NCBI GenBank assembly: GCA_001275005.1
Contig: JWZX01002079.1
Coordinates: forward strand, 1 to 43,825
Reading direction: 5' to 3'
Source of the DNA: Chrysochromulina tobinii
Lineage: Eukaryota
Length of the DNA stretch: 43,825 nt
This document shows, one piece after another, positions 19,001-22,000 of this stretch. The notes below the pieces were generated by a model, which saw only the letters and a program-made list of their open reading frames with translations, was not told the origin of the DNA and searched no databases. The first letter of the stretch is position 1; each line of letters opens with the position of its first letter. The translations under genes and the position numbers were made by a program.

Positions 19001-22000
19001 CAGCGCTTCAAGAACGCGGCCGAATATGAGGCTTCGCGCGTGAGCTACTGTAACGACATCGTGGAGCGCGAGGCGCTTGTAGAGGATGCGATCACGGGCA
19101 ACCTGCTGCGCATCAAGGACCAAACTCTCCACGTGTCGACCGCGACCGACGTGCAGGACAATGCGTCCGTCCCGCCCGAGTGGCGCGTCGATGACGTGCG
19201 CGACCTCGTTCATCTCATGCTACAGCCCTCGCCCTCGCGCAACAACGGCATGCATTCCGCACAGCCCGTGCTCGTGCGCGCCGGGCCGGGCACCGGCAAG
19301 ACGTGGATGTCGAAGCAGGCGGTGTACACGCTCGCCGATCGGCTCCGGCTCGCGGGTCAGAAGGGCATCAGTCTCGTCCCGATTGTGGTGTACGTGCAGC
19401 GCGTCGTCTTCCTCATCAGGGAGGGCTTGGGCGGCGCTCTCCTCGAACGTTACATCGAGTCCGCGTACGCTGGCAAGAAGTACGATCTGTGGCGCAAGAT
19501 GCTCGTGCAGGCCTACGAGATGCGTGCCCTCATCGTGCTCATCGACGGCGTCGACGAGGCCGCTGGGCTGCGCGACCAAATTGAGGATTTCATCCATGGG
19601 GATCTTGTGCCAAGTGGCAACCGCATTCTCGTCACTTCGCGCCCCGAAGGCGTGACACTCGTCCGCTACACCGGCCGCTTTGTGATCATGAACCTGAACG
19701 AGCTGACCAACGAGCAGCAGCGCAAGGTGATCAGCAGCATCGCGCCGCCATGTCCGCCATGGCGAGCGTCGGCCCATGGCATGCAAGCGCTCACCACGGC
19801 GCCGTGTCCCCTTCCCCCCACAGGTGATCAGCATCCAGATGCACGGCTCCGTGTTCTTCGACCACTTGCTCTCGCTCGGCGAGGTGCGCAAGCAGCTGGA
19901 CGATGCATATGCGAAGCTGCGCGAGTCGGTGCAGGGGGAGCTCGAGACTCTCTTCTCACCCAATCGGTTCCGCAAGAGCAAGGAGGAGGAGGCCGGCGCG
20001 CGCTCCTCGCGCAAAGGGCCCGGAGATGAGATCTGGGATCCGGCCGAACGCCAGCTCACCGTGAAGGGCGACCGTGTGATCGCTGAGCGAGGGGATCCTC
20101 GGTATAACAAAGCCAATAATTCCACAGCCAAGGTGGCGGCTACGGGCAGGGAGGCAGAGGAGGACGAGGAGGCTCGTCGTCGTCGTCTGTTCGAGCTGAA
20201 AGAGGCGATCGAGCTCCATTCGGTCTTTTTGAAGAATCTCGATCGGCAGCTGAACGCGTCGACACCGCAGGCGTGCGGCGTGCCTATCCTCGAGCGCCTC
20301 GATTCGGTCGTGCGTGACTGCAAGCTAGGCGTGACTGAGAAGGACTTCAAGGCGGCGGTGCTCGAGGATATGCTTGGGCCGGGAGGTGAGCTCGAGAAGG
20401 ACGAGCTCGATGGTCTCTGATTGCCACTCTGATGGACGCTGATTGCCTCCCTCATCAGGCGAGCTCGAGATGCGCCACCGTGTCGCGCTCGAGATGGGCG
20501 CGGTGCTGCTCAAAAAGAAGCGCGAAGATTTCGAGACCGCGCAGCTCAAGAAGATCAAGAAGATCAGCACAAAGACCGAGGGAGGCAAAGACGAGAAGCC
20601 GGGCTCACGCTTCAAGGCGGTGCTGCTCTCAGCCACCGTTCGCTCGAACGAGTCGGAAGCGGCCATGCCGGCGGCGGCGGTCAGTGCAGTGGAGAGGACG
20701 GCGGCGGAGCTCAAGGAGCTCAAGGAGCGCATGGCAAGACCCAGAAGCGATAGCACCGAGATCCGAGACGCCTTCTCGGGACGAGTGCTCTCGGACGCCG
20801 AGATGGAGGCTGAGGCGCGTAAGTCGAAGCTCGAGAGGAGCGCGGCCGCGCGCCTTTGGCAGAAGATCACGGCGCGCACGGATGAGCTGTACATGGTCAT
20901 TGAGAAGATGCTGAGCACCTTTGATAGCTCCATGCGGCGCCTCGCGGCCGAGGCTGGTGAAGATTCGACCCAGAGTGCGCAGCTGTCCAAGGCCGTCCAG
21001 GTCGGCGAGCTCAAATCTCACACCACCACCTCTGATGGCCTCTGAGTGCATCTCTGAGTGCATGCTGATGGCCTCCCTCATCAGGTCGGCGAGCTCAAAT
21101 CTCCTGCGCGCGCTCATTTGAAGGCGATGGAAGAGTATTCGGATCGCTTCCAAGACGGCGAGCTACCCGAGGCCTGCCTGACCGACGTATTGCGTGCCCG
21201 CATGCCCCTCGCGACGGGCCTGCAGTGCGTCGCCGTCATCACGCGCCTGCTGCAGCCGGGGGGCGTCTTGCTGGTGGATGAGTCGGCCGTTCAGGCGGCG
21301 ACCGTTAAGGCCGAAGAGGCGGACAAGGCGCGCGCGCGAAAGGGAGCCTCCTTAGCGGCGGTCACGTCGCTGGCGGCCGCGCCCGAGGCGGCGCCCATCG
21401 TCGTCGACGTAAGTAAGGCGATCAAGATCACGCTCATGAAGCTCGTCAACAAGTATGCCGAACGCGACCCCACGCACTTCCGGCAGCACACGTGCACCCT
21501 GAAGCTGCAATGGAGGGGCATGAGCGCCTACGCCGAGGTGGAGGTGCACTACGTCGAAATCATGAAGGTGGGCATCTCAAACAACTCGAGCGCGTACGAG
21601 CACTACAACTTCTTCCGCGAGAAGCTCAAGGGGACGGTGCCCGAGGGCGAGCTCGATGAGCTGCTCGAGGAGAAGCTCATCTTCCTCGTGGACGCGACCG
21701 GCATCCCCGTGCTGCTCTCGCTGCTCGTGCTCATCTTCACCTCGGGCGGCGAGGACCTGACCAAGCTGCCCTCGAACCGCATCGAGCTCTACGAGCTCGG
21801 CATCGAGTCGGCGATCAAAAAGCGGCTGCAGCGCGGCCAGGCGGCCAAGGGCGACGTCAACCCGAGTGATATGCTCATCAGGCACTGGATTCGACTCTTC
21901 AACCTCGATCGTTCGAATATGAACGTCGATGACAATCCGCAGTTCGAGCAGAAAAAGGAACGAGAGCACCGGCCGACTCGCAAGCAGGCGATGAAGTTCG

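Follow-up and report, generated by a model that had tools for sequence, protein, structure and literature searches.

How a new spliceosomal intron comes to interrupt an exon is a long-standing question. The best-documented route is through introners, which are mostly DNA-transposon-like and are accompanied by short duplications of fixed length. The question is raised again by a stretch of 43,825 nucleotides from the alga Chrysochromulina tobinii (GenBank assembly GCA_001275005.1, contig JWZX01002079.1, positions 1 to 43,825 of the forward strand), hereafter referred to as the window. An initial annotation of this DNA described three introns, in two genes, that each begin with a copy of the exon sequence following them and end in a common repeat cassette. 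Are these introns members of a mobile family, and if so, how is a member inserted? Our results show that the cassette is dispersed over at least 132 loci. With moderate confidence, we favour the view that the family is an introner-like, portable 3′ half-intron copied into exons with a long target duplication, likely from an RNA template by a process resembling target-primed reverse transcription (TPRT).

Results

Three introns of the window end in the same cassette

Two of the introns interrupt gene E (15926..29004, plus strand), a gene for a large LRR/Roc/COR (Roco-type) protein consisting of four long open reading frame (ORF) pieces with matches to Pfam LRR_8, Roc and COR-B. The third is found in gene H (35220..38184, plus strand), which consists of two ORF pieces without a Pfam family. 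All intron features given below are on the plus strand.

Intron 1 (20386..20458; 73 nt, phase 1) was defined by sequence, by a change from frame 0 to frame 1 and by two RNA contigs, X16 record 18 and X17 record 27. Its GT donor derives from an upstream target copy, AG followed by GTGAGCTCGAGA (20384..20397), which matches 20457-20470 over 14 nt with one mismatch, a T/C difference at the second intron base. A motif search identified three branch-point-like CTGAT-type units with a period of ~10 nt (20417..20445). These are followed by the 13-mer CCTCCCTCATCAG (20446..20458), an exact match that includes a pyrimidine run and the acceptor, and then by the downstream, exonic target copy GCGAGCTCGAGA (20459..20470). 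Intron 2 (21001..21084; 84 nt, phase 0), recognized from sequence, ORFs and X16 record 19, introduces an in-frame stop (21043-21045) when retained. Its upstream target copy, CAG followed by GTCGGCGAGCTCAAATCTC (20998..21019), is an exact repeat of 22 nt at a distance of 84 nt from the downstream copy (21082..21103), whose first 3 nt are the CAG of the cassette. In between are four CTGA(T/G) units (21032..21071) and an exact copy of the terminal 13-mer (21072..21084). One of the units, the 12-nt CTCTGAGTGCAT, is missing from the other allele, in which 12 nt are left out at 21040. Intron 3 (37219..37315; 97 nt, phase 1) was defined by sequence and a change from frame 0 to frame 1. Its two target copies (37218..37247 and 37315..37344, repeat family D17) are 30 nt long with one mismatch (97% identical), and enclose five CTGAT units (37251..37302, motif search) and again the exact 13-mer (37303..37315). 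The three exon copies, with one, no and one mismatch, respectively, were all as the initial annotation had described them.

The claim that the three introns share their 3′ end was also confirmed. In the window, CCTCCCTCATCAG has three exact matches, all on the plus strand, and one further match with one mismatch at 33281. Four matches at up to one mismatch compare with an expectation of 0.07, and a count of four was reached in none of 100 shuffled sequences. Runs of at least three CTGA(T/G) motifs within 25 nt occur on the plus strand only in introns 1, 2 and 3 (3, 4 and 5 motifs), and the minus strand of the window has no such run. CTGAT conforms to the CTRAY branch-point consensus. The module has recognizable parts, namely the branch-point-like 10-nt CTGAT units, the pyrimidine run CCTCCCTC and the acceptor CATCAG. 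The one-mismatch copy of the 13-mer at 33281, CGTCCCTCATCAG, is followed by CAATCAGCCTCT-like repeats up to 33340 in apparently non-coding DNA that adjoins the start of a minus-strand lysyl-oxidase-like ORF (31929-33302). This segment may represent a degenerate member of the family that lies outside any coding exon.

The cassette belongs to a dispersed family

Metagenome contigs (culture and lake) were scanned with the 20-mer tail of the cassette, CTGATNNCCTCCCTCATCAG. At least 147 stretches were obtained; all locus counts given here and below are among the matches listed. The stretches hold 231 tail matches, of which 195 were unique instances with sufficient flanking sequence. Grouping by downstream flank gave 176 clusters, consisting of 44 tandem cases, in which the next cassette follows within 40 nt, and at least 132 distinct non-tandem loci. 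Further CTGAT-type units were present near the tail in 127 of the 132, and the remaining five resemble degenerate members. Repetition was also evident in the DNA run X1, with a depth of 5969 over the cassette bin vs ~84 elsewhere. In the DNA run, dozens of contigs break at the edges of the cassette, exactly at 20438/9, 20459, 21065 and 21086. Prokaryote genomes (596 Gb) gave 16 single tail matches vs ~17 predicted when 18 bases are fixed and both strands are counted, which is the level of chance. A single tail match among viral contigs lies in a phage-like ORF without a repeat array and was taken as a chance match.

Gene E contains another intron, 19727-19823, which lacks the family tail. The tail is therefore not the universal acceptor of this organism. 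With at least 132 loci, the family is a genuine dispersed repeat rather than a generic acceptor consensus. Concerning orientation, the coding direction of the downstream flank agreed with that of the cassette at 91 loci and was opposite at 3; the direction was unclear at 9, and the flank did not look coding at 29. Support is weak for the three opposite cases, all of which fall within low-complexity sequence.

Members are often close together (L033-L035, L015-L018, L022-L024, L076-L078 and L079). Five matches fall in 3.1 kb of a 46.7-kb contig (L033-L035), four loci in 4.5 kb of a 12.9-kb contig (L015-L018), and five matches of another cluster within about 1 kb. The window shows the same clustering, as its 13-kb gene E contains two members separated by 543 nt. 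Some members are common to close relatives, while many duplications remain perfect. One family intron (L006/L041/L069) is identical but for one single-nucleotide polymorphism in three assemblies that are 97-99% alike, the only other difference being an indel in a CAG repeat. At the site of intron 3, the ORFs predicted in seven of seven relatives (82-96% protein identity) start within a few codons past the acceptor. A protein search for longer forms spanning this site found none, which is weak evidence.

Many insertions are flanked by a long duplication of the target

We examined whether the sequence downstream of the acceptor recurs upstream of the cassette. A repeat of at least 10 nt starting no more than 3 nt from the acceptor (anchored repeat) was present in 60 of the 132 loci, and its sequence was specific to each locus. 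The refined duplications are 10-64 nt long, with a median of ~23 nt. As a control, we took 90 unique loci with cassette-free flanks and used a segment 90 nt further downstream. A repeat score of 12 or more was obtained for 42 of the 90 real segments vs 3 of the 90 controls, and the repeat started within 3 nt of the acceptor in 36 vs none. The objection that the motif might be only a generic acceptor consensus, with no excess of flanking direct repeats, was not borne out by these values or by the number of loci that carry the 20-mer. Even the other 72 loci had 28 anchored matches of at least 6 nt vs 12.9 expected when exons were swapped between loci (maximum 21 in 200 permutations).

The anchored repeats begin with GT in 42 cases and with GC in 9 (51 of 60). 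Likewise, GT or GC are the first bases of the downstream exon at 117 of the 132 loci, and the consensus is GTGCG. This agrees with the initial proposal that the donor comes from duplicated exon and the acceptor from the cassette. Duplications starting with other bases were found at 4 of 12 non-coding-like loci vs 5 of 45 coding loci. Among the five coding exceptions, L052, L094, L118 and L139 are tandem or internal copies, and in L021 the first base is not the same in the two copies. In total, the target copies disagree at 54 of 1531 positions, and 27 of the 60 pairs are perfect. At the exon end 5′ of non-tandem insertions (n=44), G occupies position −1 in 36 cases, A position −2 in 23 and C position −3 in 22. 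This CAG-rich end is a protosplice site, and it also matches the last bases of the cassette.

The intron at 19727-19823 (97 nt, phase 0) is itself flanked by a 12-nt direct repeat, AGGTGATCAGCA, at 19725-19736 and 19822-19833, which gives its GT donor. It lacks the CTGAT cassette, its 3′ end is a C-rich tract with CACAG, and RNA contigs start at 19822. It may be a member of a different repeat-flanked family. A duplication footprint is therefore not confined to one cassette.

Removal of the inserts restores the reading frame

Excision of 73 and 84 nt joins the ORFs 19731-20420 (frame 0), 20443-21045 (frame 1) and 21058-29004 (frame 1) of gene E in frame. Excision of 97 nt does the same for ORFs 35220-37289 (frame 0) and 37300-38184 (frame 1) of gene H. 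The splicing of introns 1 and 2 was judged indirectly from the lengths of RNA contigs and the coordinates of their pieces, with public runs matched to 15500-29500. X16 record 18 (592 nt) matches 19822-20397 over 576 nt with one mismatch, leaving 16 nt unmatched. This is what a splice from 20385 to 20459 would give, since the alignment continues across the 12-nt duplicate, including its T/C difference. In X17 record 27 (1164 nt), the match to 20457 onward starts at letter 563, in keeping with the 562-nt length of the exon 19824-20385. In X16 record 19 (1169 nt), the match to 21082 onward starts at letter 542, which equals 20457-20997 plus the common CAG. X15 record 10 covers exactly 19822-20386. 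These coincidences fit exact splicing and speak for the boundaries predicted for introns 1 and 2; those of intron 3 follow from the reading frame. Gene H is almost uncovered across 36400-38200 in four RNA runs, and only cassette 31-mers are seen there.

X17 record 27 keeps intron 2 in a 69-nt form, with A>G at 21022 and without 3 nt and 12 nt, the latter being the CTCTGAGTGCAT unit. In the DNA run, A and G have near-equal depth at 21022 (82.5 of 167.4). Intron 2 therefore differs by one unit between alleles, and part of the RNA is unspliced. As a separate observation, 31-mers of the cassette (CTCTGAT repeat, 37262-37290) reach depths of 27-150 in RNA runs X15-X18, with 2-4 for host-gene contigs. 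Cassette-bearing RNA, summed across many loci, is abundant, and may be pre-mRNA or excised intron.

The frame was then evaluated over the family with a codon-usage score trained on the long ORFs of the window. Confident frames on both sides were obtained for 22 loci. When the interval from the start of the first copy to the AG of the cassette was removed, the frame was kept in 19 of them, where chance predicts one third, and the three loci that broke it are all internal units within tandem arrays. For these 22 loci, intron length modulo 3 is distributed 8/8/6. At the large majority of testable loci, this agrees with the claim that splicing would be scarless.

The inserts have a constant 3′ end and a variable 5′ end

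The commonest units of the cassette are CTGATTGCCT (55 occurrences), CTGATGACCT (38) and CTGATGGCCT (34), and neighbouring motifs are spaced 10 nt apart in 71 listed spacings. The number of units per intron varies from 0 to 15, with a median of 2, while the 3′ end is constant. The smallest inserts are 20-32 nt long, and the shortest consists of the 20-nt tail alone behind the duplication.

Could the family be a miniature cut-and-paste DNA transposon, that is, an introner of the miniature inverted-repeat transposable element (MITE) type, with CTGAT(G)...CATCAG as terminal inverted repeats (TIRs)? CTGATG is the reverse complement of CATCAG, and the CTGATG variant folds into a 7-bp hairpin (−6.1 kcal/mol, z −2.5). 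In the overview data of one survey, TIR elements make up about 82% of classified introner families (PMC12130899). However, the commoner CTGATT variants reach only −1.3 kcal/mol, the most frequent unit of all being CTGATTGCCT, and whole family introns fold no better than shuffled sequence. Instead of bounding the insert on either side, the inverted repeat is contained in the final 20 nt. The insert's 5′ end varies, and the duplications, at 10-64 nt, do not have a fixed short length. We consider this explanation hardly credible, the least probable of those examined.

The 5′ junction was examined in the 22 of 58 loci whose insert body starts with a recognizable cassette. The end of the duplication continued the register of the cassette for a mean of 2.05 nt vs 0.46 nt after permutation, and none of 5000 permutations reached the observed value. 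Microhomology of at least 3 nt was present in 7 of the 22. Whole units are also amplified. The first target copy is preceded by a cassette end in 16 of 60 loci, forming (target+cassette)n arrays of up to five units. Separately, the tail alone (21-22 nt; TCTGATTGCCTCCCTCATCAG or CTCTGATGGCCTCCCTCATCAG) was seen in tandem arrays of two or three copies inside introns (L013/L061, L055 and L028), which therefore offer several candidate acceptors in a row.

The junctions bring in another explanation, in which the same family, with the same splice logic, spreads by copying at the DNA level, as repair synthesis or microhomology-mediated template switching. In an exon, a 3′ end that is broken or stalled would anneal through CTG/CTCTG to the CTGAT array in a second intron of the family and copy to its end. 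It would then return by CAG/GT microhomology upstream in the original exon, so that 10-64 nt are re-copied. The 5′ junction microhomology, the enrichment of the upstream exon end for CAG, inserts down to 20 nt, the clustering of family introns within a few kb and the many tandem arrays are all in line with this route. On the other hand, it does not explain why copying should end precisely at the acceptor in over 100 loci, except if every other outcome is lost to selection. Nor was exon carry-over from other loci detected in 60 intron bodies (sample of ~120 kb), where the 39 common 14-mers were all cassette variants and none was exonic. Templated insertions made during end joining usually copy nearby sequence, and not a dispersed family, which also counts against it. 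Taken together, we regard DNA-level copying as a possible, although rather unlikely, origin of the family.

A paralogue contains an insertion absent from the window

The initial annotation had suggested a search for empty sites. One informative case was found. L109, a fragment ~86% identical to window 20957-21179, contains an additional cassette insertion (L109:527-612). Here a cassette piece of 30 nt separates two copies of a segment AGACGGCGAGCTCCC...GCCTGCCT, with ~29 nt duplicated. A sequence comparison revealed that the window has a single copy of this segment at 21153..21181 (plus strand). GT is not at the start of the duplication in L109. A few bases are shared at each junction (CCT/CTGA on one side, CA on the other), and the cassette lacks its final G. 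With an in-frame stop, soon after which homology ends, the fragment is pseudogene-like. As the only unselected insertion examined, it suggests that the GT-starting duplications in genes are what selection leaves behind, and the larger share of other starts at non-coding-like loci given above points the same way. The counterpart of intron 2 in L109 comprises three 69-nt units vs one unit of 84 nt in the window.

This empty site is paralogous, and an all-against-all comparison of loci gave L109 and the window as the only informative pair, with no allelic presence or absence among the fetched loci. When constructed empty junctions were compared with the fetched loci, the 30 blast matches were all neighbouring tandem-array units at the same locus.

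The pair also bears on a model without mobility, in which local tandem duplication of an exon containing AG|GT (Rogers model) creates the intron, and the common tail arises by convergence and microsatellite growth. Tandem duplication of whole units is common at family loci, and the fit of CTGAT to the branch-point consensus would allow for convergence. In addition, 28970-29109 is a tandem duplication without cassette, with a unit of ~68-74 nt (19-nt and 31-nt repeat pairs; 68/74 nt), across the stop of gene E (29002-29004). However, the exon copy accounts for only the first 10-64 nt of a family intron, the rest being shared cassette, and identical 20-mers occur at at least 132 unrelated loci. 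The intron at 19727-19823 of the same gene has quite a different tail, and the cassette piece of L109 sits in sequence that is uninterrupted in the window. This model is very improbable in our view.

Other features of the window

Long coding-type tandem repeats are present at 31300-31933 (15/21 nt) and 43358-43822 (15 nt), both GC-rich with Gly/Ala-type codons, and four 30-nt repeats lie in the interior of gene E (27494-27613). For an alpha/beta-hydrolase ORF of the window, Prymnesium parvum (49%) and Emiliania huxleyi (51%) were the only named eukaryotes among 52 matches, which agrees with a haptophyte genome.

Discussion

Taking into account the variable duplication, the constant 3′ end, the variable 5′ end and the junction microhomology, ordinary cut-and-paste is ruled out; the initial suggestion that a long, variable duplication fits a copy-in process better has held up. 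According to the mechanism we favour, the module would be copied into an intact exon at a staggered break or at nicks, so that the target is duplicated. It would supply the branch point, the pyrimidine tract and the 3′ splice site, whereas the start of the duplicated target would supply the 5′ splice site. With the 5′ site from the duplication and the 3′ site from the module, splicing would be scarless. In coding sequence, only sense insertions with a usable donor at the start of the duplication would survive. The copying would be TPRT-like, from a template RNA ending at the acceptor, and this would account for the exact 3′ end at more than 100 loci. The variable number of units could result from 5′ truncation, from microhomology annealing inside the repeat array and from later slippage. 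Unequal exchange between target copies could produce the tandem (target+cassette)n arrays, and the same exchange could delete an intron precisely. Target-primed reverse transcription, as against repair-templated copying, is the copy step that we infer from these features.

Elements that move by TPRT, such as non-long-terminal-repeat (non-LTR) retroposons and short interspersed elements (SINEs), generate variable duplications, a constant 3′ end, a truncated 5′ end and 5′ junction microhomology, and Penelope-like elements give long variable duplications and partial tandems. The family resembles TPRT retroposons in its variable duplication, constant 3′ end, variable 5′ end and 5′ microhomology. 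It is unlike them in that it has no poly(A) or simple-repeat tail, no internal promoter was seen, and inserts can be as short as 20 nt.

Several observations weigh against the favoured mechanism. Retroposons usually carry a poly(A) or simple-repeat tail, and the elements of this family end in CATCAG right before the duplication. To our knowledge, the inserts of 20-32 nt are shorter than any known SINE. No reverse transcriptase, autonomous partner or longer copy turned up at the examined loci, and no aimed genome-wide search was made. In 36 of the 58 introns, unexplained filler lies between the duplication and the first unit. In 72 of the 132 loci there is no long repeat within 400 nt; many of these are long arrays or have lost the copy. 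The microhomology at the junctions of L109 and the loss of the terminal G, with the CA overlap at the 3′ junction, suit DNA repair synthesis at least as well. Not every member is recent, as seen from the relatives sharing the intron-3 site and from the intron found in three assemblies. Finally, intron 2 is retained in one RNA contig, and only the reading frame speaks for the splicing of intron 3.

A more specific form of RNA-templated copying deserves mention, although we consider it doubtful. The transposition intermediate might be the family's own excised intron RNA, or its tail beyond the branch point. Copying would proceed from ...CAUCAG-3′ back through the CTGAT array into a staggered break at AG|GT, so that a product of the spliceosome would be the replicating unit and transposon-type termini would be unnecessary. 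This would explain why the constant part is the branch point and tail (~20 nt), why the 3′ end is the acceptor, why the 5′ end steps by one unit, and why cassette 31-mers reach so much greater depth in RNA runs (50-150) than contigs of the host gene do (2-4).

How does the family compare with known introners? As described in the available text of two studies, introners of Symbiodinium, Polarella glacialis (classes 4/5 and 6/8/10) and Aureococcus anophagefferens bring their own 3′ splice site, whereas the 5′ site is provided by the target site duplication (TSD) (10.1101/2020.10.14.339549; PMC9860276). The likeness extends to dispersed, near-identical introns, an element end serving as acceptor, a donor at the start of the target copy (GHNN...), scarless splicing, and the use of GT and GC donors. 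In these reports, however, the duplications are fixed at 4 or 8 nt and the elements have TIRs and are taken as DNA transposons, whereas our family has variable duplications of 10-64 nt, no TIRs at its two ends, a body made of a variable array of 10-nt repeats and a minimal insert of ~20 nt.

Haptophyte introners offer a further comparison. The accessible tables of PMC9860276 list, for haptophyte metagenome-assembled genomes, many introner families of 48-108 nt with duplications and without inverted repeats, including families of 80-89 nt in Prymnesium sp. and family 5 of Chrysochromulina sp. (618 copies, mean 72 nt, TSD yes, TIR no). Our family agrees with these in algal group, size range, genic location and the presence of duplications without inverted repeats (PMC9860276). 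In contrast, family 5 has a 4-bp duplication and the reverse polarity, in that the element contains the 5′ site and the 3′ site is co-opted (PMC9860276). A further haptophyte case is fam24 of Emiliania huxleyi, with 5 copies of ~70 nt, '10bp terminal direct repeats' and the entry 'co-opt 5' carry 3'' (PMC12130899 Dataset sd07). It shares with our family a haptophyte host, the polarity, a similar length and unusually long direct repeats (PMC12130899). Compared by description only, it differs in having just 5 copies and the class 'Unknown', and its entry describes neither a variable duplication of 10-64 nt nor an array. C. tobinii itself is listed there with 0 introner families (PMC12130899). 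CCTCCCTCATCAG was not found in the searched part of the supplementary text of PMC9860276 and PMC12130899, which may contain no sequences.

New introns of Daphnia, as reported in the available parts of two studies, have short direct repeats and were attributed to double-strand-break repair (PMC4202315, PMC3020277). There, as here, direct repeats overlap the splice sites of young introns, and a repair origin has been proposed. The Daphnia introns are mutually unrelated in sequence, whereas a shared cassette is found here at more than 100 sites. In the literature searched, there was no description of this cassette, of such long variable duplications, or of junction microhomology in introners. The initial suggestion of a distinct mechanism of intron gain therefore stands in part. 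The logic of splice-site co-option is already known from dinoflagellates and Aureococcus, and the long variable duplications were not described in the available text of those reports (10.1101/2020.10.14.339549; PMC9860276). The long variable duplications, the minimal module of 20 bases and the junction microhomology are new with respect to the literature searched.

The footprint of this family, with a 5′ end set by microhomology inside a 10-nt array and frequent secondary tandem amplification, points to a copy-in route, either RNA-templated or by repair synthesis, that needs almost no element-specific sequence. If this is true, introns could be gained anywhere that such machinery comes upon a ready-made 3′ half-intron. 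At the same time, recombination between the two copies of a long duplication would provide a built-in path to precise intron loss. As the organism is in culture, with both DNA and RNA data, these questions are directly testable.

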